Origin: Candidatus Tectimicrobiota bacterium
GTDB lineage: Bacteria; JACPUC01
Assembly: GCA_016192455.1 (NCBI GenBank)
Contig: JACPUC010000010.1
Location: 62,001-90,855, forward strand
DNA: 28,855 nt
Direction: 5' to 3'
Under the pieces are notes generated by a model. It ran no database searches and had not been told where the DNA came from. It was given only the letters and a program-made list of their open reading frames with translations. Position numbers and translations under genes: made by a program. Below are positions 12,437 to 28,855 of this stretch, piece after piece; position 1 is the stretch's first letter, and each line of letters begins with the position of its first letter.

Positions 12437-14038
12437 ATGACCGGGGAACCAACTCGACCGATTGCCGGCCGCGCCAGCGCTGCGGCCACGGCTGCCTTCG
12501 CCCGCCGGCAGGGGGCGGCGCGGCCGCGCCTGGAGCCGACGGCCTTCCGCGAGCTGAGCGGCACGGGCCTCACCGTCTCCAAGGTGGGCTACGGCACCTA
12601 CCGCGTGCACGTCGACGTACCGGAGCACCATGAGACGCTCGCCGAGGCGATCCGCCGCGGCTGCAACTGCATCGACACCTCGAGCAACTATACGGACGGC
12701 GGCAGCGAACGCCTCATCGGCGCGGTGCTGGGCGACCTCATCGGGGCCGGCGAGGCGCGGCGCGAGGAAATCGTGCTGGTCTCGAAGGTGGGCTACCTGC
12801 AAGGGCAGAACCTTGACCTGGCGGTGCAGCGCCAGGCGCGGGGGAACCCCTGGCCGGAGATTGTCCATTACCAAGAGGGTTGCTGGCACTGCATCCACCC
12901 CGATTTCCTCGTGGACCAGCTCGAACGCAGCCTGGCCCGCCTGCGGTGCAGCGCCCTCGATGTCTACCTCCTCCACAACCCGGAGTACTTCTTCGCACAC
13001 GCCCTGCATGACTCCGGCTCCCAGGACCTGCCGGCCCTGCGCGACGAGTTCTATCGCCGCGTGGAGCGCGCCTTCGCGCAGTTCGAGCGCTTCATCCAGG
13101 AGGGGCGGCTGTCATTCTACGGCATCTCCTCGAACACCTTCCCCAATCCGCGGCAGGACGGCGAGACGGTCAGCCTCGACCGCGTCCTGGCGGCGGCCCG
13201 CCGGGCCGCGGCGGAGGTGCTCGGCGACCCTGAACGGCACCACTGCAAGGTCGTGCAGCTCCCCTACAACCTCTTTGAGAGCGGCGCTCTGACGGAGCGC
13301 AACACGCCGCTCAACGGCGCCTCGGCAACCCTCCTCGAGGCCGCGGCCGCCTGGGGCGTCGGCGTCCTCGTCAACCGCCCCCTCAACGCCATCCGCGGCA
13401 ATTCCATGCACCGCCTGGCGCGGCCGGCGCCGCCGCCGGGGAGCGACTATGCCGGCGAGCTCGAGACGACGCTGCGCGCCCTGCAAACAACGGAAGCAGC
13501 GCTGCGCCAGGAGATGGAGGGGTGGCCCCAGCCCCCGCGCGCCTCGGACCTCGGCCCGCAGCAGCAGTTCTTCTTCGACGTCGGCGAGGTGCTGGCCGCC
13601 AACCTCGCGCGCCTGCCGGCGGGCGAGCAGTGGGAGATGATCGTCGGCCGGATCCTCGCCCCGAACATCCAGAAGGCCCTCGAGGAGGCCCTGCGCCGCT
13701 GCCCGATTGAGCGCCGCGAGGCCTGGAAGGGGCGGCAGCCGGCCTACGTTGAGCAGCTCAACGCTCTCCTCGCCGGCATCCGGCGCTACCACGAGTGGCG
13801 CGCCGCCGAGCAGATGGCGCCGCTCGACGACCGCCTGGCGGCCTGCCTGCCGCCCGGCACTCCCCAGGCGACGCTCTCCCAGAAGGCCCTCCAGTTCGTC
13901 GCCTCGTCTCCCGGCGTCGCCGTCGTCCTTAACGGCATGAAGCGCTCCCCGTACGTGGAAGATGCCCTCGCCATCATGGAGATGCCGTCGTATGCTGACG
14001 TGATGGGGCTGGCAGCCGCGGCCTACGAAACCTCCTGA
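12437..14038 (+). CDS. Long aldo/keto reductase family protein
   Basis: VGYGTYR, IDTSSNYTDGGSERLIG, VSKVGY, LERSLARL, YLLHNPE, YGISSN, VQLPYN and VLNGMK. AGGAGG RBS. Helical insert in the C-terminal half. Confidence 0.9.
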   Translation: MTGEPTRPIAGRASAAATAAFARRQGAARPRLEPTAFRELSGTGLTVSKVGYGTYRVHVDVPEHHETLAEAIRRGCNCIDTSSNYTDGGSERLIGAVLGDLIGAGEARREEIVLVSKVGYLQGQNLDLAVQRQARGNPWPEIVHYQEGCWHCIHPDFLVDQLERSLARLRCSALDVYLLHNPEYFFAHALHDSGSQDLPALRDEFYRRVERAFAQFERFIQEGRLSFYGISSNTFPNPRQDGETVSLDRVLAAARRAAAEVLGDPERHHCKVVQLPYNLFESGALTERNTPLNGASATLLEAAAAWGVGVLVNRPLNAIRGNSMHRLARPAPPPGSDYAGELETTLRALQTTEAALRQEMEGWPQPPRASDLGPQQQFFFDVGEVLAANLARLPAGEQWEMIVGRILAPNIQKALEEALRRCPIERREAWKGRQPAYVEQLNALLAGIRRYHEWRAAEQMAPLDDRLAACLPPGTPQATLSQKALQFVASSPGVAVVLNGMKRSPYVEDALAIMEMPSYADVMGLAAAAYETS

Positions 14039-14088
14039 GGGGGAGAAGGTTCCTCCACGCGATCTCATCTTGCGAAAGGGTGGCGGCA

Positions 14089-14607
14089 ATGGCTCTTACG
14101 GTACGCGTCGGTGATCGTTTCCCCGATTTCGAGCTGCCCTCGTCAAGCGGCGAGGTGGCGAGGCTCTCCGAGCTGCTCAAGAAGAAGCCGAGCATCGTCG
14201 CCTTCTATCGCGGCTACTGGTGACCGAAGTGACAGGTCCAACTGCGGGAATTGGTCCAATTCCATGACACGATCGCCCACAGCTACTGCGATGTCGTCGC
14301 GGTGAGCACCGACAGCGTCTCGGAGTGCGCCGCCTTCCGCGCCGGCCTGAACGCGCGCTTCACCTTCCTCAGCGACGCCGAGCGCCAGGCCGTCGAGCGC
14401 CTCGGCATCGTTGATGACTCCGACCCCCGGCGCCCGCGCATCGCCGCGCCCTTCACCTTCGCCCTGCTGCCGGACCTCACCGTGCACCGCATCTACAACG
14501 GCTGGTGGTTCGTCGGCCGGCCGACGCCGCATGAGCTGCGCCTGGATATTCGTGAGATGAGCCGCCGCTGCCGGGAGAACTACGAGGGGCCCTGCGCACC
14601 CGCGTAG
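14089..14607 (+). CDS. Peroxiredoxin-like (AhpC/TSA/redoxin fold) candidate selenoprotein with UxxU motif, 172 aa
   Basis: Reading from ATG 14089 gives MALTVRVGDRFPDFELPSSSGEVARLSELLKKKPSIVAFYRGYW-TGA-P-K-TGA-QVQLRELVQFH...VVAVSTD...FTFLSD...YNGWWFVGRP in a single frame. TGA codons at 14221 and 14230 occupy the CxxC positions. Confidence 0.82.
14247..14263 (+). promoter_or_regulatory. Candidate bacterial SECIS hairpin
   Basis: GGAATTG-GTC-CAATTCC. The loop begins with G, about 21 nt after the second TGA and about 30 nt after the first. Confidence 0.55.
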
Positions 14608-14691
14608 CCTTGTCGGAGCGCGGGCGTCCCGCCCGCACCTGCAAGGCTCCAAGTCTCGGCCGCCGCCCCTTTCGCGGCCACCCCCCGTCAC

Positions 14692-15693
14692 TCAAGCCTG
14701 CGCAATGGCATAGCCGCCGGGGCCCTCGGTCTTCAGGTGGTGGACGAGAAAGCCGTTCGCCTCCAGCAGCCGGCGCAGGCTCAACGGGGTGTGGAAGGTC
14801 CGGCCGGTGAAGCCGTACACCATGGCCTCGAAGAGCAGCGCCCCCATGTTGCCTCGGCGCCCCTCGTCCGGCAGGAACTCCACCACCACGAGGTGGCCGC
14901 CGGGGCGCAGGGCGGTTCGGCAGGCGCCGAGGAGCTGCTGCTGCTCCGTCTCGCTGAGGGTATGGAGGAGTTGGCTCATGAAGACGGCGTCGTACGGCCC
15001 CCCAAGAGGCTCGCGGCGGCAGTCGCCGGGCCGCTCCTGGAGGCGCCCCGCCACGCCGAGCCGCTCGCCGAAGCGGCGCGCCACGGCGGTGAGGTGCGGG
15101 TGATCGAGCAGCGTCAGCTTCGCCCGCGTCAGCCGCAGGAGAGCAGTCAAGCCGAAGGCCCCGGCGCTGCGCCCCAGGTCGAGCAGCCCCCACGCCTCGT
15201 CATGCTCCCCTTTCCAGCCCAGATCGTCGCAGACCTTCTCGGCGATGGGCCGATTGATGCCGAAGAGCCCGGTCGCCAGGCTGGCGGCGTACTCCTTGTC
15301 GTCGACCCACACATCGAGATCGAGCGCCCTGCCCTGCGCGATGACGTGCTCGTAGTGCTCGAAGACGCGGAAATGGTAGGCCGAGCCGCAGCCCGCGGTG
15401 ATGAGATCGCCAAGGTAGCTTGGGCTGTCTTCGACGAGGTAGGTTTCCGCCAGGGGACGCAGGCGGTAGGACTCCCCCTCCTTGCGCAGCAAGCCCAGGG
15501 CGGTGAGGGCGTTGAGGGTGACGCGGATGCCGCCGGCGTCTCCCGCAACGGCGGCGGCGAGCTGCGCTACCGTCGCGTTGCCGCGGGCGATGTGGCTGAA
15601 GAGCCCGGTCGCCACGGCGCCCCGCAGGAGGCCGGCGGTCCAGTGGCCGGTGGCGAGCAGCAGGATGGCATCGGGTCGCAGGCGGGCCGCCAT
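14692..15693 (-). CDS. O-methyltransferase-type SAM methyltransferase (N-terminal dimerisation domain plus catalytic domain)
   Basis: GAVATGLFSHI, LNALTALGLL, AETYLV, LLDLGRSAG, YDAVFMSQLLH and ALRPGGHLVVVEF. GGAG RBS. Confidence 0.85.
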   Translation of the reverse strand: MAARLRPDAILLLATGHWTAGLLRGAVATGLFSHIARGNATVAQLAAAVAGDAGGIRVTLNALTALGLLRKEGESYRLRPLAETYLVEDSPSYLGDLITAGCGSAYHFRVFEHYEHVIAQGRALDLDVWVDDKEYAASLATGLFGINRPIAEKVCDDLGWKGEHDEAWGLLDLGRSAGAFGLTALLRLTRAKLTLLDHPHLTAVARRFGERLGVAGRLQERPGDCRREPLGGPYDAVFMSQLLHTLSETEQQQLLGACRTALRPGGHLVVVEFLPDEGRRGNMGALLFEAMVYGFTGRTFHTPLSLRRLLEANGFLVHHLKTEGPGGYAIAQA

Positions 15694-18257: not shown

Positions 18258-18527
18258 GTTGTGAACCAGAGAGGATGAGCCAGGCGGCAGGCGCGGGAAC
18301 CACGGCGTCTCCCTCAGCCGTTCTTCGAGACCGCATCACCACGCGGCATGGAAACCTCCATGCTGCTTGGCACCCCGGCGCGAAACGCCGCGGCGAAGCT
18401 TTCGGCGGCGGCCGGGTGGGGTAGCTCGGCGCCTGCATGCGGGCGGTGCGCGCGGCGATCGTCGAGCGTCTCCCCCGCAACGTTCAACGTTCCCCGTCGC
18501 GCCTTTAGGGATGAAAGGGAACCGGAC

Positions 18528-19886
18528 ATGGAATACGATCTGCGCGCGGCGCTCAGGCAATATCAGCAGGTGGGCGAGCTCGTCAGCATCGGCAAAGAGA
18601 TCGACCCCAGGTATGAACTCTCGGCGGTGCTCTGGAAGCTACGCCAGGGCCCGGCCGTCTGCTTCGAGAAGGTGAAAGGCTCGCCCTTCCGCGTCGTGGG
18701 GAACGTCATCAACACCCGGCGCAAGCTCGCCATTGCCCTGGGGATCGACGAGAGCGAGGTCCTGACGCATGGCGTGGAAGCCTTGGAGAACCCGCTGCCG
18801 TGCGAGACCCTGGGCGACGCCCCCTGCAAGGAGGTGAAGATCACCCCGGTTCCCGACCTGAGCAGAATCCTGCCCATCCCGAACGTCTCGGAGCATGACG
18901 GCGGCCCCTACATCACCGCCGGCATCGCCGTTGCCCGGCATCCGGAGACCGGCCAGCGCAACTACTCCATCCACCGCATGCAGTTCCACGGCGGCAACGT
19001 CTGCGGCATCAGCCTGGCGCCGACGCATCTGAGCAAGATCGCCCAGAGCTGCCGGGCCTTAAAAAAGCCCCTCGAGCTGGCGATCTCGATCGGCAATCAC
19101 CCGGTGATCTGCTTCGCCGCATGCATGTACGTGCCGTCGGGCCATGACGAGCTGGAGGTGGCGGGCGGCATGCTGGGCAAGCCGGTGCAGCTCGTGAAAT
19201 GCGAGACGGTGGACCTCGAGGTGCCGGCGGCTTCGGAGATCGTGCTGGAGGGCGAGCTCTGCTACGACGATGTGCGCGACGAAGGCCCCTTCGGCGAGTT
19301 CCACGGCGCCTATGCCGCCCAGGGTCGCAAGCCGACGTTCCACGTCAAGGCCGTCACGCACCGCAAGGATGCGCTCTACCAGACCATCGTCGGCAGCATC
19401 CACCCCGAGCACCTCTTCCTCACCGGCATGCCGCGAGCCATGACCCTCTACCGCGCTCTCAAGGTAGCCAACCCGCGCATTCAGGATATCGCCATGACTA
19501 ACGGCGGTTGCGGCCTCTTCCACGCCGCTATCTCGGTGAAGAACCCCTCCGAGGGGGAGGGCAAGCGCGTCATTTTCAATGCCTTCGGGGTGAATGACCT
19601 GCTGAAGAAGGTGACCGTGGTCGATGACGACATCGACGTGCACGACCCCGTGCAGGTGGAGTGGGCGACGGCCACGCGCATGCACGCCGACCGCGACGTC
19701 TTCATCGTCCCGCACGTGAAGGCCAGCCCCGCCGATCCCCTCAATGAGAACCTCCTCATCTCAAAGATGGGGATTGACGCCACGAAACCACGCACCGATA
19801 ACCCGGAGCGCTTCAAGTTCGCCTTCGTCCCGAAGAGCGTCTACGCCGAGGTGGAGAAGAACTGGGAGAGCTACGTGAAGGGATGA
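18528..19886 (+). CDS. UbiD family prFMN-dependent (de)carboxylase
   Basis: DGGPYIT, SIHRMQ, VPAASEIVLEG, EGPFGEFHG, VVDDDIDV, VEWATATR and SKMGIDAT. Start MEYDLR after AAAGGGA. Confidence 0.92.
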   Translation: MEYDLRAALRQYQQVGELVSIGKEIDPRYELSAVLWKLRQGPAVCFEKVKGSPFRVVGNVINTRRKLAIALGIDESEVLTHGVEALENPLPCETLGDAPCKEVKITPVPDLSRILPIPNVSEHDGGPYITAGIAVARHPETGQRNYSIHRMQFHGGNVCGISLAPTHLSKIAQSCRALKKPLELAISIGNHPVICFAACMYVPSGHDELEVAGGMLGKPVQLVKCETVDLEVPAASEIVLEGELCYDDVRDEGPFGEFHGAYAAQGRKPTFHVKAVTHRKDALYQTIVGSIHPEHLFLTGMPRAMTLYRALKVANPRIQDIAMTNGGCGLFHAAISVKNPSEGEGKRVIFNAFGVNDLLKKVTVVDDDIDVHDPVQVEWATATRMHADRDVFIVPHVKASPADPLNENLLISKMGIDATKPRTDNPERFKFAFVPKSVYAEVEKNWESYVKG

Positions 19887-20113: not shown

Positions 20114-22234
20114 ATGGGGTACGCAGTCGGAATTGACATCGGCGGCACGTTCACCGACCTCGTCATGTACGGCGACACAAACCGCCTGCTGATCACCGGC
20201 AAGGTGCTGACGACGCCGGAGAACCCGGCCCTGGGCGCCCTGGAGGGCTTGCGGCGGCTGATGGAGCGCGCCGGCATCGGCGGCCGGGAGATCGAGGTCG
20301 TGGTGCACGGCACCACGCTGGTGGCGAACGCCATCGTCGAACGCAAGGGGGCCACGACCGGCCTCCTTACCACGAACGGCTTCCGCGATATCATCGAGAC
20401 CCGCCGCGAGAAGCGCTACGACCTCTACGACCTCTCCGCTCAGTTCCCCGAGCCCCTGGTCCCGCGCTCGCGGCGCCTCGGGGTTCCCGAGCGCATCGCC
20501 GCCGATGGCGCCATCCTGCAACCCCTCGACAGCCAAGCCGCCGGCGCCGCCGTCGACACGCTGCTGGCGCGCGGCGTCGAGTCCGTGGCCATCTGTCTGC
20601 TCCACGCCTACCGCAATCCCACCCACGAACAGGCCCTGCGCGACCTCCTGGCGGCGCGCGCGGCTCATCTCACGGTCTCGCTCTCCTCGGAGGTGGACCC
20701 CGAGCTCCGCGAGTACGAGCGCTTCTCCACCACCGTCTGCAACGCCTACACGCAACCCGTCATGGCTCGCTACCTGCGCGAGCTGCAGGAGGGCCTGTGG
20801 GCCGCCGGGGTCAGGGCGCCCCTGCACATCATGCTCTCCAGCGGCGGCATCACCACCCCCGCCGTGGCGGCGCGCTTTCCGGTGCGCATCCTCGAGTCGG
20901 GACCGGTGGGCGGCGTACTGGCGGCGGCCCACGTCGGGCGCTCCGCCGGCTCGTCGTCCCTGCTCTCCTTCGACATGGGCGGCACGACCGCCAAGCTCTC
21001 CTTCATCGAAGGCTCGACCCCCACCCTGCTGACGGAGTTCGAGGTTGACCGGGCCTACCGCTTTAAGAAGGGGAGCGGCCTGGTGGTGCGCGTGCCGGTG
21101 GTGGACATCGTCGAGATCGGCGCCGGAGGGGGGAGTATCGCCCAGGTCGGCGGCATGGGACTGCTGAAGGTGGGGCCGGAGAGCGCCGGGTCACGTCCGG
21201 GGCCCGCCTGCTATGGCTTCGGCGGGGTGCTGCCGACGGTCACCGATGCCGATCTCCTCCTGGGCTACATCAACCCGGAGCGCTTCCTGGGAGGCAGGAT
21301 GCCGTTGAACCGCGCCGCCGCCCACCAGGCCATCGAGACGCGCCTCGGCAAACCCCTGGGGATGGAGGCGATCGAGGCGGCCTGGGGCATCCACCGGGTG
21401 GTCAACGAGAACATGGTGAACGCGGCGCGCATCTACATGGCCGAGAAGGGGCGCGACCCGAAGCGCTACGACCTGATCGCCTTCGGCGGCGCGGGTCCCA
21501 TCCATGCCGCCTGGCTGGCGCGCAAGCTGGGAATTGCGCGGGTCACCGTGCCGCCGCGCGCCGGCGTCGCTTCGGCGCTGGGCTTCCTCGTCACCCCCCT
21601 GTCGTTCGACTTCGTGCGCACCTACGTGACCGGGATCGCCGGCGTCGACTGGAGCCACCTGAACCAGCTCTACGCCACGATGGAGGCGGAAGCCCGCGGC
21701 ATGCTCGGCGCCGCCGGCATCGCCGAGCGTGACATCACGCTGCGGCGATACGCGGAGATGCGCTACGTCGGGCAAGGACGGGAGATCTTCGTGCCGCTGC
21801 CTGCCGGCCCCTATGGGCCCGCTGCGCAGCCAGCCCTGACGCAGGCGTTCGATGCGGCCTATGCCGGCATTTACACGCAGACGAATCCGGGGCAAGCCAT
21901 CGAAGCGATCAACTGGCGGCTGCTGGCCAGCGGCCCCACGCCGCGGCGCGCCTTGATCTCCCCCCTGCTCCCCGCCGACGCCGCCAGGAAACCGGGCGCG
22001 GCGCGCCCCGTCGACTACCGCAAGGTGTACCTCGGCGAGGGGATGGGAGGCGAAGGGGTGGGGTTCTGCGAGTGCGCCGTCTATGATCGCGCCACCCTCC
22101 CCGCGGGGGCGCGGATCAGCGGACCGGCCCTGGTGGAAGAGGAGGATACGGTCACCCTCCTGGGGCCGGAGACGAAGGCGGAGATCGACGCCTTCTCCAA
22201 CATCGTCATCACCATCCACACTCACGCGAGGTAA
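20114..22234 (+). CDS. Hydantoinase A/oxoprolinase family ATP-binding subunit (A1)
   Basis: IDIGGTFTD, HGTTLVANA, REYERFSTT, LESGP, DMGGTT, IGAGGGSIA, PGPACYG and FGGAGP. Confidence 0.93.
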   Translation: MGYAVGIDIGGTFTDLVMYGDTNRLLITGKVLTTPENPALGALEGLRRLMERAGIGGREIEVVVHGTTLVANAIVERKGATTGLLTTNGFRDIIETRREKRYDLYDLSAQFPEPLVPRSRRLGVPERIAADGAILQPLDSQAAGAAVDTLLARGVESVAICLLHAYRNPTHEQALRDLLAARAAHLTVSLSSEVDPELREYERFSTTVCNAYTQPVMARYLRELQEGLWAAGVRAPLHIMLSSGGITTPAVAARFPVRILESGPVGGVLAAAHVGRSAGSSSLLSFDMGGTTAKLSFIEGSTPTLLTEFEVDRAYRFKKGSGLVVRVPVVDIVEIGAGGGSIAQVGGMGLLKVGPESAGSRPGPACYGFGGVLPTVTDADLLLGYINPERFLGGRMPLNRAAAHQAIETRLGKPLGMEAIEAAWGIHRVVNENMVNAARIYMAEKGRDPKRYDLIAFGGAGPIHAAWLARKLGIARVTVPPRAGVASALGFLVTPLSFDFVRTYVTGIAGVDWSHLNQLYATMEAEARGMLGAAGIAERDITLRRYAEMRYVGQGREIFVPLPAGPYGPAAQPALTQAFDAAYAGIYTQTNPGQAIEAINWRLLASGPTPRRALISPLLPADAARKPGAARPVDYRKVYLGEGMGGEGVGFCECAVYDRATLPAGARISGPALVEEEDTVTLLGPETKAEIDAFSNIVITIHTHAR

Positions 22235-22239
22235 GGCGC

Positions 22240-23937
22240 GTGTACGATGCCGTGACCTTGGAGGTGCTCTGGAACCGCGTCATCGCCATCTGCGAGGAGC
22301 AGGCGCGCTCGCTCTTCAACGCCTCCTTCTCGACCATCGTGGGCGAGAGCGAGGACTTCGCCAGCGCCCTCTACGACGCCCGCGGCAACCTCCTGGCCCA
22401 GGCGGCGAGCAGCGGCACCGTCGGTATGATGATGGGGATGACGAAAGGCATCAAGGCGTTCCTGCGCAAGATTCCGGCGGCGGCGCTGCAGCCCGGCGAC
22501 GCCCTCATTGCGAACGATCCCTGGCTGCTGTCGGGACACAAGTACGACGTCACCATCGCCTCGCCGGTGTTCCGAAGCGGCGTTCTCATCGGCTTCACGG
22601 CCACCACGCTGCACGCCACCGACATCGGCGGCATCGGCTTCTCCGCCGCCTCGCGGCAGGTCTTCGACGAGGGGCTCACCATCCCGATCATGAAGATCGT
22701 CAAGGCCGGGAGGCCGAACGAGGAGCTCCTCGAGATCATCCGCGAAAACGTCCGCGAGCCCGACCAGGTGATCGCCGACTTCTTCGCGCAGCTTGCCGCG
22801 AACACGCTCGGCAGCCAGAAGCTCCTCGACTTCATGAGCGACTATGATCTCCCCACCCTCGAGCCGCTCGCCGCGGCGATCGTGGACCGCACCGAGCAGG
22901 CCATGCGCGCGGCCATCGCGGCGCTGCCCGATGGCGTCTTCACCTCCACGGTGGATTTCGACGGCTATGAAGCGCCGCTGCGCATCGTCGCCACGGTGCG
23001 CATCAGCGGCGACGAGATGACGGTTGATTTCGCCGGCACCTCGCCGCAGGTGCCGCGTGGCATCAACAGCGTCCTGAACGTCACCGAAGCCTACACAGTG
23101 CACGCCATCAAGTGCGCCCTGGCGCCGGACATCCCCAACACCGAGGGGACCTTCCGCCCCATCCGCGTCCTGGCGCCGGAGGGCTGCCTGCTGAACGCCC
23201 GGCGGCCCGCCGCGGTGATGGCCCGGCACGTCCTCGTGCTCTTCATCTCGGCGGCGGTCTTCGGCGCCCTGGCGCACGCCGTACCGGAGAAGGTCATCGC
23301 CGAAAGCGGCCACCGCATGATCCATGCCCTGAGCGGCATGGCTCCTTCCGGCGAGCCGTTCATCTACTGGTTCCTCGTCAGTTGCGGCGTGGGAGCCACG
23401 GCCGCGCACGACGGCCTCTCCGGCACCAACTTCCCGGCCGCCGTCGGCACGGTTCCAGTCGAGATGATCGAGACGGTATCGCCGGTCTTCATCGAGAGGA
23501 AGGAGCTGCTCCTCGACTCCGGCGGGCCGGGCACGTTCCGCGGCGGCTGCGATCAGGAGGTGGTCTTCCGCATCCACTCGCGGGAGGCCGCGACGCTCTC
23601 GGCGATGTACGACCGCCTCCTCTTCCCGGCGCGGGGCTACGCCGGGGGCGGGGCGGGAAGGCCGGGCCGCTTCAGGATTCGGGGCGCCGCCGGAGAGCGC
23701 GCTCCAGGAGGGAAGGAGCGCTGCTCCATCGCGCCGGGGGAGACGGCGGCGGTTTGCGGGGGTGGCGGCGGCGGCTATGGGCCAGCCGAGCGGCGGGACC
23801 CCGAGCGGGTGCGCCGCGACGTCGAGGATGGCCTGGTGTCGCCGGAAGCCGCCCGCGCCGTCTACCGCGTCGTTCTCGATCCCGAATCCCTGGCGATCAA
23901 CTGGCAAGCCACCACGATGCTTCGCGCGCAGGGGTGA
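22240..23937 (+). CDS. Hydantoinase B/oxoprolinase family subunit (B1)
   Basis: TLEVLWNR, NDPWLLSGHKYD, HATDIGG, EGLTIP, VDFAGTSPQ, DSGGPGTFRGG and GGGGGYG. GTG start 5 nt after the A1 stop. Confidence 0.92.
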   Translation: MYDAVTLEVLWNRVIAICEEQARSLFNASFSTIVGESEDFASALYDARGNLLAQAASSGTVGMMMGMTKGIKAFLRKIPAAALQPGDALIANDPWLLSGHKYDVTIASPVFRSGVLIGFTATTLHATDIGGIGFSAASRQVFDEGLTIPIMKIVKAGRPNEELLEIIRENVREPDQVIADFFAQLAANTLGSQKLLDFMSDYDLPTLEPLAAAIVDRTEQAMRAAIAALPDGVFTSTVDFDGYEAPLRIVATVRISGDEMTVDFAGTSPQVPRGINSVLNVTEAYTVHAIKCALAPDIPNTEGTFRPIRVLAPEGCLLNARRPAAVMARHVLVLFISAAVFGALAHAVPEKVIAESGHRMIHALSGMAPSGEPFIYWFLVSCGVGATAAHDGLSGTNFPAAVGTVPVEMIETVSPVFIERKELLLDSGGPGTFRGGCDQEVVFRIHSREAATLSAMYDRLLFPARGYAGGGAGRPGRFRIRGAAGERAPGGKERCSIAPGETAAVCGGGGGGYGPAERRDPERVRRDVEDGLVSPEAARAVYRVVLDPESLAINWQATTMLRAQG

Positions 23938-24028
23938 GGGGCGCGCCATGGCGCACCGCGCCCCCGCTGCCCGCCGTTTCGTCACTCGCCTACGTCCAGA
24001 AGCAGCGCCGTCTGGAGGAGGGTCAGTC

Positions 24029-25030
24029 ATGCAGCACAGGTCGCTCGGGAGGGTGCGGAGGATCAGCGGCGCTGGGCTGGCGCTGCTGGCGTTCGTCCTT
24101 GCCGTCGTGGCGAGCGTCGCGGCCGTGGAGGAGGTGAAGGTCGGCCACCAGCCGACGATCACCACCGCGCCGGTCTACATCGCCGTGGAGAACCGCTACT
24201 TCGCGGAGGAGGGGCTGAATGTTCAGGTGACCGCCTTTGCGTCCAGCGGCAAGCAGATGCCGGCTCTCGCCACGGGGCTGCTCGACGTCGGCACCGGCGC
24301 TCCGGGAGCGGCGCTCTTCAATGCCATCGCGCAAGGGATGGACTTCAAGGTCGTCGCCGATAAGGGGCAGATCCGACCCGGCATGTCGGCCGGCGGCCTG
24401 ATGGTGCGCCAGGACCTCTGGGACTCCGGGGAGGTCCGCTCCCCCAAGGATATGGTCGGCCGCCGCATCCTCTCCTATGCGCCCGGAATTCAGATCGACA
24501 TCCTGATCATCGAGACCCTGAAGAAGTACGGCGCCCAGTGGAAGCCGGAGAACCGCATCTACATGCCGCCGCCGAAGATCATCAGCGCCTTCCAAACCAA
24601 AGTCGTGGACATCGCCACCGCCGTCGAGCCCTGGATCACCCGCACCCAACGCGCCGGGTTGGGGAAAATTTTGATCTCCTACGAAGACCTCGAGCTGACG
24701 CGGGACGCCCAGATCGGCGTGACGATTTACTCCGGCGCCTTCTCCAGGACGCGCAAGGAGGCGGCGAAGAAGTTCATGAAGGCGTACGTCAAAGGGGTGC
24801 GCTTCTACACGGAGCACGGCTTGAAGAACCCCGAGGTGACGAAAATCCTCACCAAGCACACCAAGGTGCCGGTGGAGGACATCGCCGCGACGATCCCGTT
24901 CTACCTCGACAAGGATGGGCGGCCGAACGTTTCGAGCATCATGCGCTTCCAGGACTGGTTCTTTGATAACGGCTACACGAAGAAGAAAGTGCCGCAGGAG
25001 CAGATCATCGACCTGAGCTTCCTGAACTGA
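24029..25030 (+). CDS. ABC transporter substrate-binding protein, SsuA/NMT1/THI5-like
   Basis: GGAGG RBS, signal peptide, APVYIAVENRYFAEEGL, FNAIAQG, AVEPW and C-terminal IDLSFL. Confidence 0.88.
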   Translation: MQHRSLGRVRRISGAGLALLAFVLAVVASVAAVEEVKVGHQPTITTAPVYIAVENRYFAEEGLNVQVTAFASSGKQMPALATGLLDVGTGAPGAALFNAIAQGMDFKVVADKGQIRPGMSAGGLMVRQDLWDSGEVRSPKDMVGRRILSYAPGIQIDILIIETLKKYGAQWKPENRIYMPPPKIISAFQTKVVDIATAVEPWITRTQRAGLGKILISYEDLELTRDAQIGVTIYSGAFSRTRKEAAKKFMKAYVKGVRFYTEHGLKNPEVTKILTKHTKVPVEDIAATIPFYLDKDGRPNVSSIMRFQDWFFDNGYTKKKVPQEQIIDLSFLN

Positions 25031-25192
25031 GCGATCACGGTGGGGCGCGGCCGGCGGGGCGGCGCCTTCGCTCCGCCGCGGCCCGCGCGCCGCGCGAGTT
25101 TCTGAACACCCTCGCTGCTCGGTGCGCCTGCCGGCGCTCCCCGCTGGCGCGACCGCACCGGTGGGGGAGCCGCGTCGTCTGTGGTGCCGCCC

Positions 25193-27259
25193 ATGAGCTT
25201 GCGGATCAGCGTTGATACGGGCGGGACGTTCACCGATTTCGTCTGCCTCGACGACAGCGGCGAGGCTCAGGTGACGAAGATCCTGAGCCTCCCCGAGAAC
25301 CCCGCCGCAGCTGTGTTCGCCGGCTTGCGCCAGATTGCCGCGGCACGCGGTCTGCCCCTGTCGGAGCTGCTGGCCTCGACGACGAACCTGTTTTTCGGCA
25401 CGACCCTCGGCACGAACGCCGTCCTCACCGGCACGGGCGCGCGGCTGGGCCTGCTGACCACGAAGGGGTTCCGCGACCTCCTGGAGATGCGGCGGGGGAC
25501 GCGGGACCACCTCTACGACAACAAGACGCCTCCCCCGTCTCCCCTCGTTCCCCGCTACCTGCGCCTCCCCATCACCGAGCGCGTTGACGCCGCCGGCGAG
25601 GTGATCATCCCCTTGCGCGCGGAGGATGTCGCGCAGGCCTGCGCCACGCTGCGGCGCGAGGAGGCCGAGGCCGTCGCCGTCGCCTTCCTGCACGCCTACT
25701 GCAACCCGAAGCACGAGCGCGAGGCGGCGGCGCTCCTCGCCCGGCTCTGGCCGCAGGCGTTCCTCAGCCTCTCCAGCGAGGTCGCCCCGGCCATCGGCAT
25801 CTACGAGCGCACCTCCACCACCGTCTTAAACGCTTACTGCGGGCCGCTCATGCAGCGCTTCGTCGGCCGCCTCCAGGAGGAGCTGCGCGGCGCCGGTTTC
25901 GGCGGCTCCGCCCTGGTCATGCAATCGAACGGCGGTATGATCTCGCCCGCCGACGCCGGCCGGTTCGCCGCGCGCACGATCCTCTCGGGTCCTGCGGCGG
26001 GGGCCATGGCGGGCCGCGCCTTGGCGCGGCAGACCGGCATCGACACCTGCATCACCCTGGATATGGGGGGGACGAGCACCGACGTCTGCCTCATCGAAGC
26101 GGGCGAGCCGATCGTCACCACCGAGGCGCGCCTCGGGGCGGGACGCTATCGGCTGAACCTGCCGACGCTCGACATCCATACCATCGGCGCCGGCGGCGGC
26201 AGCATCGCCTGGCTCGACCGCGGCGGCCTCCTGCACGTCGGCCCGCAGAGCGCCGGGGCGCAGCCCGGCCCGGCCTGCTACGGCCGCGGCGGCAGGCGGC
26301 CGACGGTCACGGACGCTAATGTCCTGCTCGGCTGCATCGCCCCCGAGCGCTTCTTCGGGGGGAGGATGCAGCTCGATTCGCAGGCCGCCCGGCGCGCCAT
26401 CGAGGAGGAGGTGGCCGGAGCGCTCGGTCTCGATGCGGCGGCGGCGGCGTTCGGGATCATCACCGTCGTGAATACCAACATGGCCGCCGCCGTGCGCGAG
26501 GTGTCGCTCGACCGCGGCTACGATCCGCGCGACTTCGCGCTCGTCGTCGGCGGCGGCGCGGGGCCGCTGCACGCCTGCGCGGTGGCGCGGGAGATCGGCA
26601 TTCCCCGCATCGTCGTGCCGCGCGACGCCTCGGCGTTCAGCGCCCACGGCATGCTGGCCACCGACCTCCGGCACGATTTCGTGGCGACGTTCACCGGGCC
26701 CCTCGACGGCAGCTCCGCCAAGGCGCTGCCGCAGACCTTCGCGGAGCTGCGGCGACAGGCCCACGCGCAACTCGAAGCCGACGGCGTGCCGGAGTCAGGC
26801 CGGCAGCTCGTGCCGTCGCTGGACCTGCGCTACAAGGGCCAGTACCACGAGCTCACCGTGCCGCTGGCTGCCGGCGATGCCGAGAGCGGCGCGTTCCCCG
26901 CCACCGCGGGCGCCTTCCACAGCCGCCACGAGCAGCGCTACGGCTACGCGGTGAAAGAGGATGCCATCGAGATCGTCAACCTGCGGCTCCTCGCCATCGG
27001 CTGCCTGCCGAAGACCGCCGCGCCGGCGAAGGCCGCCCGCGCGCCGTCCACCTTGGCTTCTCCCAGCGGCATGAGAGCGGTCTACCTGGACCGGCGCGGC
27101 GGCTTCCGCGAGGTGCCCCTCTACGATGGCGCGCTGCTTCACCCCGGTTTCACGGCCAACGGCCCGGCCCTCATCGCGCAGCCCTTCACCACCATTCTCG
27201 TCGCCGTCGACTACACGGTGCAGGTCGATCCCTACGGCAACTACCTCCTGTGGCGTTGA
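25193..27259 (+). CDS. Hydantoinase A/oxoprolinase family ATP-binding subunit (A2)
   Basis: VDTGGTFTD, GTTLGTNA, YERTSTT, MQSNGG, LSGPAAG, DMGGTSTD, IGAGGGSIA and DLRYKGQYHEL. Confidence 0.93.
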   Translation: MSLRISVDTGGTFTDFVCLDDSGEAQVTKILSLPENPAAAVFAGLRQIAAARGLPLSELLASTTNLFFGTTLGTNAVLTGTGARLGLLTTKGFRDLLEMRRGTRDHLYDNKTPPPSPLVPRYLRLPITERVDAAGEVIIPLRAEDVAQACATLRREEAEAVAVAFLHAYCNPKHEREAAALLARLWPQAFLSLSSEVAPAIGIYERTSTTVLNAYCGPLMQRFVGRLQEELRGAGFGGSALVMQSNGGMISPADAGRFAARTILSGPAAGAMAGRALARQTGIDTCITLDMGGTSTDVCLIEAGEPIVTTEARLGAGRYRLNLPTLDIHTIGAGGGSIAWLDRGGLLHVGPQSAGAQPGPACYGRGGRRPTVTDANVLLGCIAPERFFGGRMQLDSQAARRAIEEEVAGALGLDAAAAAFGIITVVNTNMAAAVREVSLDRGYDPRDFALVVGGGAGPLHACAVAREIGIPRIVVPRDASAFSAHGMLATDLRHDFVATFTGPLDGSSAKALPQTFAELRRQAHAQLEADGVPESGRQLVPSLDLRYKGQYHELTVPLAAGDAESGAFPATAGAFHSRHEQRYGYAVKEDAIEIVNLRLLAIGCLPKTAAPAKAARAPSTLASPSGMRAVYLDRRGGFREVPLYDGALLHPGFTANGPALIAQPFTTILVAVDYTVQVDPYGNYLLWR

Positions 27260-27317
27260 AGAAGCGCGTCGGGCCCTTCTCGGCGGAAGGCCCGCCGCGC
27301 ATGGAGCGGCTATCCCC

Positions 27318-28855
27318 ATGAGCGCACCCGCGACCACGGCAGACGCGTCGGTTGATCCCATCCTCGTGTCGGTGATCGGCAAGCACCTCGAGAACATCAC
27401 CCACGAGATGGGCATCGCCATGACGCGCTCGACCAGCAGTCCCTTCTTTCAGGTGAAGGACATGTGCACGGCGATCCTGGACGAGCGGGCCCGCCTGCTG
27501 TGCCAGAAAGAGTACCTGCCGCTCATGGCCTACACCTTCCCGACCATGCTCGAGGCGCTCCTGAAGTTCTTCGGGGACGATGTGGGCCCGGGCGACGTCT
27601 TCATCACCAACGACGTCTTCTACGGCGGCAACCAGGCCCAGGACCTGGCTTTCTTCCGGCCCCTCTTCTGGGAAGGGGCGCTGCGCTACTGGACGGCGAC
27701 AAAAGGCCATCAGGTGGACCTGGGCGGTCCCATCCTGGGCGGCTACAACCCGCGCGCCCGCGAGGTGTGGCAGGAGACCGTGCGCATTCCGCCGCTGAAG
27801 GTCTACGAAGGGGGGAAGCTGCGGCGCGACGTCTGGAACCTGCTGATGGAAAACACCCGCCTGCCGCGGCTGGTGGGGCGCGACTTCCAGGCCATGATCG
27901 GCGGCTGCACGGTGGGCGAGCGCCGCCTCCAGGCGCTCCTGCAGCGCTATGGTCACCCGAGCGTGCACGCGCACATCGACGCCCTCCTCGACTCCTCCGA
28001 GGCGATGATGCGCCTGGAGATCGAGCGCCTGCCGGACGGCGCCTACCAGGCCGAGGCCAGCACGCAGGACGACGGACAGGACAAGGAGGCGGTCTACACG
28101 GCCCGCCTCGCCGTCACCATCGCGGGCAGCTCCATCACCTTCGACTTCAGCGGCAGCGACCCGCAGGCCCCCGGCTGGATCAACGGCGTCTACGCCACCG
28201 CCTTCTCAGCCGCGGTGTGCAGCCTCTTCATGTGCGTCGATCCGCTCATTCCGCGCAACGACGGCGCCATGCGCCCCATCCGCGTGCTGCTGCCCGAGGG
28301 GAGCTTTTTGAACGCACGCTACCCGGCGGCCTCCGTGCGCGGCAACTTCACCTGCAACGACGTCATCGGCGACAGCATCATGAAGGCGCTGGCGCAGGTG
28401 ATGCCGGAGCGCGTCACGGCGGGATGGGCGCGCTCGCTCACCGGCTCGATCGCCGGCATCGACCCGCGGACGGGTGAGAAGTACTACGACGTGATGTTCA
28501 TCTCGAACCGGGGGGGATCAGGGGGGACGCAGGGCACCGACGGCTGGAGCTACATCGGCATCCTGACGCTGGGCGGCGGCATCACGGTGCAGGACCTGGA
28601 AATCCACGAGCGCACCAAGCCGCATTTCTTCCATGAGCTGGAGTTCGCGCCCGATGCGGGAGGGGCTGGGCGGTGGCGGGGCGGTCTCGGCGCCCACAGC
28701 CGCTTCACCGTTTTCGCCCGGGATACCGAGATCGTCATGCGCGGCGACAACTCGAACGCGCCGTTCGGGCTCTTCGGCGGGCGGCCAGGGAGGCGGGGCG
28801 AGTGTCGGCTGGAGCAGGCGAACGGCGAGATCGTCGAAGTGCAGGCCAATGAGCT
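27318..28855 (+). CDS. Hydantoinase B/oxoprolinase family subunit (B2), 3' end outside the window
   Basis: Not in the ORF track because it has no stop. Manual translation from ATG 27318 gives VDPILVSVI, PGDVFITND, KGHQVDLGG, RIPPLK, FDFSGSDPQ and DAGGAGRWRGG. Confidence 0.9.
   Translation, partial: MSAPATTADASVDPILVSVIGKHLENITHEMGIAMTRSTSSPFFQVKDMCTAILDERARLLCQKEYLPLMAYTFPTMLEALLKFFGDDVGPGDVFITNDVFYGGNQAQDLAFFRPLFWEGALRYWTATKGHQVDLGGPILGGYNPRAREVWQETVRIPPLKVYEGGKLRRDVWNLLMENTRLPRLVGRDFQAMIGGCTVGERRLQALLQRYGHPSVHAHIDALLDSSEAMMRLEIERLPDGAYQAEASTQDDGQDKEAVYTARLAVTIAGSSITFDFSGSDPQAPGWINGVYATAFSAAVCSLFMCVDPLIPRNDGAMRPIRVLLPEGSFLNARYPAASVRGNFTCNDVIGDSIMKALAQVMPERVTAGWARSLTGSIAGIDPRTGEKYYDVMFISNRGGSGGTQGTDGWSYIGILTLGGGITVQDLEIHERTKPHFFHELEFAPDAGGAGRWRGGLGAHSRFTVFARDTEIVMRGDNSNAPFGLFGGRPGRRGECRLEQANGEIVEVQANE

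Follow-up and report, generated by a model that had tools for sequence, protein, structure and literature searches.

The window analysed here is a stretch of 28,855 nucleotides (nt) from Candidatus Tectimicrobiota bacterium (assembly GCA_016192455.1, contig JACPUC010000010.1, positions 62,001 to 90,855 of the forward strand). It contains an intact redoxin gene that is hidden from gene callers, its frame being interrupted only by the TGAs of codons 45 and 48 ahead of the terminal TAG at 14605-14607. With both TGAs read as selenocysteine (Sec, U), the active-site motif becomes FYRGYW-U-P-K-U-QVQL. We propose that the gene encodes a redoxin with two Sec residues, both probably decoded through one selenocysteine insertion sequence (SECIS) hairpin that lies further downstream than in its closest selenoprotein relatives. 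The features of the locus are collected in Table 1.

The earlier note on this stretch had described the frame with its two TGAs, intact redoxin segments on either side of them, and a 118-residue tail as the sole entry in the list of open reading frames (ORFs); it expected annotation pipelines to report a fragment or a pseudogene. All of this holds. Translation reproduces the frame with no further stops, the plain ORF list gives only 14251..14607 (118 amino acids, from a TTG start), and gene callers return the same 118-residue fragment. Both TGAs lie within the AhpC-TSA domain (Pfam PF00578), whose profile matches residues 7-126 of the read-through product at 83.9 bits (cut-off 26). Codon usage follows the same frame on both sides of the TGA pair: its log-odds are 0.37 before the pair and 0.57 behind it, where the best of the five other frames reaches -0.48 and -0.04. 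Both TGAs fall on active-site positions of the fold, a placement that on alignment and modelling grounds goes beyond chance.

Table 1. Features of the redoxin locus, in positions of the window.
Feature	Position	Strand	Basis or remark
Redoxin gene, 172 codons, ATG to TAG	14089..14607	+	Translation, PF00578, AlphaFold2 model, 11/11 invariant columns kept
UGA codon 45, predicted catalytic Sec, N-terminal position of CxxC-type motif	14221..14223	+	Cys or TGA in relatives; model
UGA codon 48, second Sec candidate, resolving-Cys position (equivalent to the peroxidatic-Cys position of BCP-type peroxiredoxins)	14230..14232	+	
Ancestral SECIS site of the UPKC relatives, degraded in the window	14235..14249	+	At most 3 contiguous pairs left
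Candidate SECIS, 7-bp hairpin GGAAUUG / GUC / CAAUUCC	14247..14263	+	Folding; weaker lower stem possible to 14243-14269
Putative Shine-Dalgarno-like purine-rich stretch AAAGGGUGG, 5 nt before ATG	14075..14083	+	Letters only

The AlphaFold2 model of the read-through product (mean predicted local distance difference test score 89.4, predicted template-modelling score 0.86) has a thioredoxin fold of the BCP/PrxQ type. Its matches in Foldseek include 3hjp_A, with a template-modelling (TM) score of 0.84, and 5epf (E = 8.5e-14), and the top sequence match among solved structures is the Aeropyrum BCP 2cx3 (E = 9.8e-10). Residue 45 sits one residue ahead of the helix 46-57, and the position just before this helix is the classic site of the attacking Cys in a CxxC motif. 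In the alignment with 2cx3, the stretch R-G-Y-W-U-P-K-U stands opposite P-A-A-F-S-P-V-C, the peroxiredoxin signature P-x-x-x-S-x-x-C: residue 48 takes the place of the peroxidatic Cys (SPVC motif), residue 45 that of the Thr/Ser, and the Pro is absent. The PxxxT/SxxC signature of a canonical BCP/PrxQ peroxiredoxin is thus missing from the protein. None of the NCBIfam models scores above its own cut-off, BCP reaching 48 bits of 140 and NF040769, for SelL-related redox proteins, 43.7 of 120.

Among the 238 relatives examined, position 45 is Cys or Sec without exception, and position 48 varies between D, E, C and U, which marks position 45 as the family's catalytic residue. Every one of the family's 11 invariant columns is retained in the window protein, and apparently most of the 28 that are nearly so. 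Sequence and predicted fold make it a thioredoxin-like oxidoreductase rather than a peroxiredoxin of the canonical kind.

A protein database gave 788 matches to the window redoxin, the best 120 of which were examined. Full-length homologues make up 117 of them, at 43-50% identity, all with Cys at position 45; position 48 is Asp in 113 of them and Glu in 4. The other three are truncated calls, namely the window's own fragment, P0003 (77-78% identity) and P0092 (63-65%). Most of the full-length homologues of the CPRD type (P0004-P0121, e.g. P0006 of 276 amino acids) are fused at their C-terminus to a cold-shock domain (PF00313 with PF00578), an architecture that is odd for a redoxin.

Since gene callers stop at TGA, DNA was searched in place of proteins. 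Pattern scans of species-representative genomes and JGI metagenomes, the metagenome loci being the best 80 of 319 confirmed matches, yielded 125 loci, 121 of which span the active site. The scan motifs came from the C-terminal half of the subfamily, so that these loci sample near relatives of the window gene and not redoxins at large; none among them exceeds 58% identity to it. The motif UPKC (TGA-CCN-AAR-TGY) is present at 108 of the 121 loci, with TGC at 101 and TGT at 7; three loci read UPKD, and ten combine Cys45 with Asp or Glu at codon 48. By codon, this makes 111 TGA and 10 Cys at position 45, and 108 TGC/TGT and 13 GAY or GAG at position 48. The loci that carry a name are mostly labelled Methylomirabilota or Rokubacteria and come from soil and groundwater, and the UPKC loci (L051-L175, e.g. 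L051:2153-2653 and L057:3001-3486) are unannotated. The statement in the earlier note that relatives of this subfamily often have a single Cys, in CPKD/E, therefore describes the annotated databases but not the nearest relatives, which are UPKC. The conserved TGA codons that it proposed to look for are seen among these loci at codon 45 and not at codon 48, and Cys, or a codon for it, does occur among the homologues at both positions.

We placed these sequences in a tree of 74 rows, built by a quick method on a subset that takes in the genome loci, one metagenome locus in four, 10 proteins of the database, and the window protein with P0003 and P0092. The last three form a clade with 100% support in the Shimodaira-Hasegawa-like approximate likelihood ratio test (SH-aLRT), on a branch of 1.45 changes per column, and this clade is nested in the UxxC group (98% support). 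On the simplest history, the window gene derives from a UPKC selenoprotein whose codon 48 went from TGC to TGA by a single base change. The three U-P-K-D loci, by label from Leptospirales (L082:946-1455), Gemmatimonadota (L087:3001-3474) and Anaerolineales (L088:3001-3489), are scattered among Cys-P-K-D relatives, suggesting repeated exchange of Cys and Sec at the catalytic position.

The genome of the window is a metagenome bin of 31 contigs and 4.46 Mb, 88% complete. The selA, selB, selD and selC genes, which a Sec reading calls for elsewhere in the genome, are all there: selA (596 bits), selB (366 bits) and selD (389 bits) score above their curated cut-offs, and the tRNA-Sec, whose anticodon is TCA and which ARAGORN confirms, reaches 75.5 bits (cut-off 47). 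The selD is itself of the Sec type, with one in-frame TGA. By its gene content, the host organism is able to make selenoproteins. Three further redoxin homologues in the same genome carry one in-frame TGA each, and a rough coding-potential screen brought up 39 in-frame TGA candidates, a number that is no census, as the screen overlooked both selD and the window redoxin. Some 18-20 of the 39 are plausible selenoproteins when judged by typical motifs. Such motifs include CxxU in AhpD-like proteins, W-U-P-Y-C in redoxins and UQGGYRS in rhodanese; by them the genome would presumably have five or more AhpD-like genes with CxxU, two redoxins with W-U-P-Y-C, a Sec rhodanese and GrdB-like genes. Candidate sites include C7:104385, C31:112094, C22:101090, C23:165015 and C3:18297, and further C23:22855, C27:116801, C25:26062 and C1:115149. 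The genome looks rich in selenoproteins, the Sec-type selD included. For a groundwater Methylomirabilota genome bin, 63 selenoprotein genes were predicted in a primary study cited by the 2026 review PMC13188914. The sole other close pair of in-frame TGAs with a coding signal on both sides is at C2:110650 (- strand), reading ...DSIA-U-A-U-KRF..., with weak scores.

The UPKC relatives show where the SECIS of this subfamily originally lay. All 63 unique 45-nt sequences of the clade have a 5-bp helix beginning 11 nt after UGA45, in the register GUGCC / GGCAC in 48 of them and GGUGC / GCACC in 15. Its 3' arm is invariant, and its 5' arm alternates along with a Cys/Val change at codon 50. The loop of 6-7 nt begins 16 nt after UGA45, and its second place is always G, followed by G or U. 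In the model quoted in PMC13188914, a bacterial SECIS is a stem-loop with G at the first or second loop place and a loop 16-37 nt after the UGA; the UPKC loop stands at the lower limit of this range. In the window the ancestral helix is degraded, with mismatches in two of five pairs in the first register and in one of five in the second.

A different hairpin, of seven perfect pairs, folds in the window at 14247-14263 (-6.7 kcal/mol, pair probabilities 0.92-0.95) and is present in the centroid fold. Its loop opens with G and U; it follows UGA48 by 21 nt and UGA45 by 30 nt, both within 16-37 nt. The hairpin starts 23 nt after UGA45 as against 11 nt in the UPKC relatives, and its loop lies 14 nt further on than theirs. 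By comparison of predicted folds, displacement of the SECIS accompanies the second UGA. The ancestral helix would begin 2 nt after UGA48, with its loop 7 nt behind that codon; it would therefore be inside the ribosome, and unusable, when UGA48 stands in the A site.

Two observations on codons touch this hairpin. The truncated call P0003 starts at the residue that matches the TTG at 14251, a rare Leu codon (6% usage) in the 5' arm of the hairpin, a hint that would fit a TTG conserved there. The codons of the hairpin are of low usage (GAA 0.16, TTG 0.06, CAA 0.125); an argument from rare codons is not decisive, because common codons would yield hairpins too. We also considered two successive, mutually exclusive hairpins, one (14235-14257) serving UGA45 and the other UGA48. 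We rejected this arrangement: the first of them (-5.4 kcal/mol) has a pair probability of 0.0, and neither of its first two loop places is a G. An Rfam scan of 13800-14900 gave only weak chance matches, and Rfam has no model for such a SECIS.

Part of the stretch is contained in 18 public runs, four of which, from one study, are its possible source. Contigs of four runs (X1, X5, X7 and X13) could be aligned to 13900-14800 at 80% likeness or more. From X1, a possible source run, a separate Logan assembly has a 4676-nt contig identical over the whole of 13900-14800, which may share reads with the window, and three further samples of the X1 study contain 99-100% of the sampled words. Record 17 of X5, from another study, covers 13900-14591 with 47 differences and 4 gaps; record 26 of X7, from a third study, covers 13916-14482 with 39 differences and 3 gaps. 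Both are about 93% identical to the window, and every one of their gaps lies upstream of 14089. Record 11 of X13, from soil and a fourth study, covers 14203-14636 with 16 differences (96% identical). We could inspect 40 of 86 difference rows, which we infer to include all the differences shared by X5 and X7 and not all those private to one contig. Between 14185 and 14264, a segment holding both TGAs and the hairpin, these 40 rows contain no difference, and none is shared by X5 and X7. TGA thus stands at both codons in at least one of the X5 and X7 relatives, and probably in both; the same is not assertable for each of them, nor for X13.

These contigs bear on the possibility that TGA48 is a mistake of sequencing or assembly, or a rare variant that the assembler fixed, in what is really an ordinary UPKC gene. 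In favour of it, the genome is a metagenome bin, and contigs lose rare variants. Against an error stand the identical X1 contig (even if its reads are perhaps the same), the three further samples, and the contigs of studies P2 and P3, which cover the site with no shared difference among those inspected. In addition, the SECIS is rebuilt around TGA48, which a single erroneous base does not explain. We regard an error of this kind as highly improbable; on these comparisons, the change at codon 48 is neither an assembly slip nor recent.

Eleven of the differences shared by X5 and X7 fall inside the ORF, nine of them at third positions and seven synonymous. Downstream of codon 48 there are ten, of which eight are at third positions and seven synonymous (from the same 40 of 86 rows). 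Random single-base changes in these codons would be synonymous in 24% of cases, and P = 0.003 for each measure. With the invariant residues intact, this bias towards third-position and synonymous changes places the frame behind UGA48 under protein-level constraint in the lineage that carries the codon, which favours read-through and disfavours both a pseudogene and an assembly error.

We now propose, with a probability of about 0.68, that the window encodes a UxxU redoxin with two Sec residues, both inserted with the help of a single SECIS that has moved. The idea in the earlier note of Sec codons at both CxxC positions is thus supported at the level of sequence, by the Sec machinery, the alignment with Cys and the purifying pattern of substitutions. 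The product would be a cytoplasmic, BCP/PrxQ-like thiol oxidoreductase of thioredoxin fold, both of whose redox-active positions are Sec (U45-P-K-U48). It would have arisen in a UxxC selenoprotein family that is frequent among soil and groundwater bacteria of the Methylomirabilota type, when a TGC to TGA change turned the codon of the resolving Cys into a second Sec codon. SelB and the Sec-tRNA(Sec) would decode both UGAs with the help of the single hairpin at 14247-14263. In the folded protein, U45 may attack the substrate, be it a disulfide, a sulfenic acid or a peroxide, and U48 would resolve the adduct to give a U45-U48 diselenide, as against the selenenylsulfide expected in the UPKC relatives; a cellular reductant would then regenerate the two selenols. 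From general selenium chemistry, the diselenide is expected to have a lower redox potential than the selenenylsulfide of the UPKC sisters. The locus may also record the passage from UxxC to UxxU itself, the second Sec codon having been kept only with a SECIS shifted by about 14 nt downstream, a scenario to which we give slightly less than even odds.

Several observations weigh against this reading. TGA at codon 48 occurs at none of the 121 loci of the genome and metagenome scans. Of the 59 matches in a protein search of 401 genomes, the window gene alone has two in-frame TGAs; the 58 others, from 400 genomes, lack this form, P0003 and P0092 being known as protein calls alone. Among the relatives recovered as contigs, TGA48 holds for at least one and not for every one, and there is no RNA run among the public runs that contain the stretch. 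The hairpin itself is not special when set against dinucleotide shuffles (z-scores from -0.55 to +1.35), and among synonymous resamplings 74% fold no worse and 7.6% form a perfect 7-bp stem. Its loop lies 30 nt from UGA45, compared by eye with 16-21 nt in five other selenoprotein genes of the genome. Finally, in a genome that is 88% complete a gene for a tRNA reading UGA as Cys, of the kind called tRNA(ReC), might be missed.

Some of these facts would equally suit a true stop at UGA48, that is, a nonsense mutation in a former UPKC gene that left a young pseudogene or a peptide of 47 residues. One base change suffices for TGC to become TGA; the codon is absent from the other loci, the SECIS of the UPKC clade has been lost as it might be in a decaying gene, its replacement is statistically like chance, and none of the public runs with the stretch is an RNA run. 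Yet the 124 codons after UGA48 are intact and keep all invariant residues, and the relatives diverged by about 7% in two other studies show no shared change at the TGAs and no gaps within the ORF, their shared downstream differences being mostly silent as counted above. The window protein also belongs to a long, well-supported branch whose 77% and 63% identical partners conserve the C-terminal half as well. A true stop therefore seems unlikely to us.

The other way to accept read-through is to take UGA45 as Sec and UGA48 as Cys, brought by a tRNA(ReC) with SelB or by tRNA-Cys, or else as Trp or Arg through near-cognate read-through, giving a UPKC-like product or a mixture. Cys would be functional at residue 48, where it is the ancestral amino acid. 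According to PMC13582414, about 56% of the genomes with UXXU hydrogenases carry tRNA(ReC)-like genes, and one or both UGAs may be Cys there; that paper defines tRNA(ReC) by a length of at least 80 nt, a UCA or GCA anticodon and the discriminator U. Run over all 31 contigs, ARAGORN returned 47 tRNAs, among them a single tRNA-SeC, a single normal tRNA-Cys and a 94-nt 'tRNA-Cys(GCA)'. The last, at C20:156564-156657 (L176:1565-1658), has mismatched stems, an unpaired extra arm and the discriminator A; it has no Rfam match to tRNA or tRNA-Sec at E <= 10 and lies inside long ORFs, most likely a false positive. Seven of 11 weaker matches to RF01852 were made into loci and proved to be ordinary tRNAs, of class II and other types, for Leu, Ser, Tyr, Gly and Thr. 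A second tRNA-Sec-like or UCA-anticodon gene was not found by ARAGORN in this 88%-complete genome, nor any tRNA(ReC)-like one, and a SelB directed by a SECIS normally brings Sec. We consider a Cys, Trp or Arg at codon 48 improbable beside the double-Sec redoxin.

Among solved structures, the closest in fold and sequence to this proposed double-Sec redoxin are the BCP/PrxQ proteins (2cx3, 3hjp and 5epf), whose peroxidatic Cys is matched by residue 48. The window protein differs from them in lacking the signature Pro and Thr/Ser, and in relatives the peroxidatic position is taken by Asp or Glu. SelL, the namesake of NF040769, is likewise a thioredoxin-fold, peroxiredoxin (Prx)-like protein with UxxU, and Shchedrina et al. 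in 2007 are said to have found that it forms a diselenide. It is a protein of aquatic eukaryotes, decoded through a SECIS in the 3' untranslated region (3'-UTR). The window gene, in contrast, is bacterial, with an in-frame hairpin, and it scores below the NF040769 cut-off and so is no member of that family. The UPKC clade shares with it 49-58% identity over the full length (48% for L076), the same FYRGYW-U-PK, the C-terminal tail and Sec45, and differs in having TGC or TGT in place of TGA at codon 48 and a SECIS helix nearer to UGA45. The other members found of this subfamily are UPKC, UPKD or Cys with Asp or Glu, unlike the UxxU of the window.

UxxU in bacterial PF00578 redoxins is already catalogued: the reviews PMC9312934 and PMC13188914 list, among predicted prokaryotic selenoproteins, a Prx-like thiol:disulfide oxidoreductase class of PF00578 with UxxC or UxxU and one or two Sec. 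The window protein resembles this class in its Pfam domain and in having predicted Sec at both CxxC-type positions, where the class has it at the first or at both. It differs in belonging to a subfamily with a YNGWWFxGRPT tail; the representative listed for the class is WP_010940744.1. UxxU sequences are also on record in PMC2398784 for a distant family, Prx-like 2, from marine metagenomes. The suggestion that UPKU is a new active-site variant accordingly stands within the subfamily, where none of the 121 other loci has TGA48, and falls for PF00578 redoxins in general. What is new here is the subfamily's UxxU member, the size of the unannotated UPKC clade and the displacement of the SECIS with the second UGA. 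Full-text searches on UxxU selenoproteins and on the Methylomirabilota selenoproteome, whose reach excludes subscription papers, brought up no account of the subfamily or of a shifted SECIS.

A parallel in decoding is offered by the UXXU Group 4 [NiFeSe] hydrogenases, for which PMC13582414 also has two UGAs 9 nt apart and proposes one downstream SECIS for both. Protein and chemistry (Ni ligands) are unrelated. In the hydrogenases, from CXXU to UXXU, a UGA was added upstream of an unchanged SECIS; in the window the added UGA follows the first one, and the SECIS lies at a new place. Diselenide motifs are rare in nature, and for the decoding of UGAs 9 nt apart, at issue in that 2026 paper too, the window gene provides a small and soluble test system, with UxxC relatives close enough to serve as controls and a SECIS that is clearly displaced. 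If our reading is true, the window and its UPKC sisters would form a natural matched pair that sets spacing rules for Sec codons 9 nt apart, and would allow selenenylsulfide and diselenide to be compared in one scaffold. The known range of selenoprotein kinds is left unchanged by the window gene; with more than 100 UPKC relatives overlooked by gene callers, the subfamily of soil and groundwater redoxin selenoproteins is under-annotated.

The redoxin gene is preceded on the same strand, at a distance of 51 nt, by an aldo/keto reductase gene and followed by a convergent O-methyltransferase gene; these neighbours give no clue to its function. The Shine-Dalgarno-like stretch before its ATG is weakly supported, the X5 and X7 relatives differing at 14074 and 14080 and having an extra base inserted after 14075. 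Right after the stop, a G+C-rich palindrome at 14603-14651 weakly matches a single Rfam hairpin model on either strand; though without a T run, it is a possible terminator-like hairpin serving both this gene and the convergent methyltransferase gene.

Elsewhere in the window, at 20114-28853, the A and B genes of hydantoinase/oxoprolinase occur in two tandem sets (20114-22234 with 22240-23937, and 25181-27259 with 27126-28853). The lineage of the genome seems poorly represented among reference genomes, the 400 sampled relatives all being labelled 'same domain' only, and for one hydantoinase B of the window no named homologue exceeds 52% identity, apart from one metagenome fragment at 96%. Near these sets are genes for NMT1-like binding proteins and a UbiD-family decarboxylase (18348-19886).

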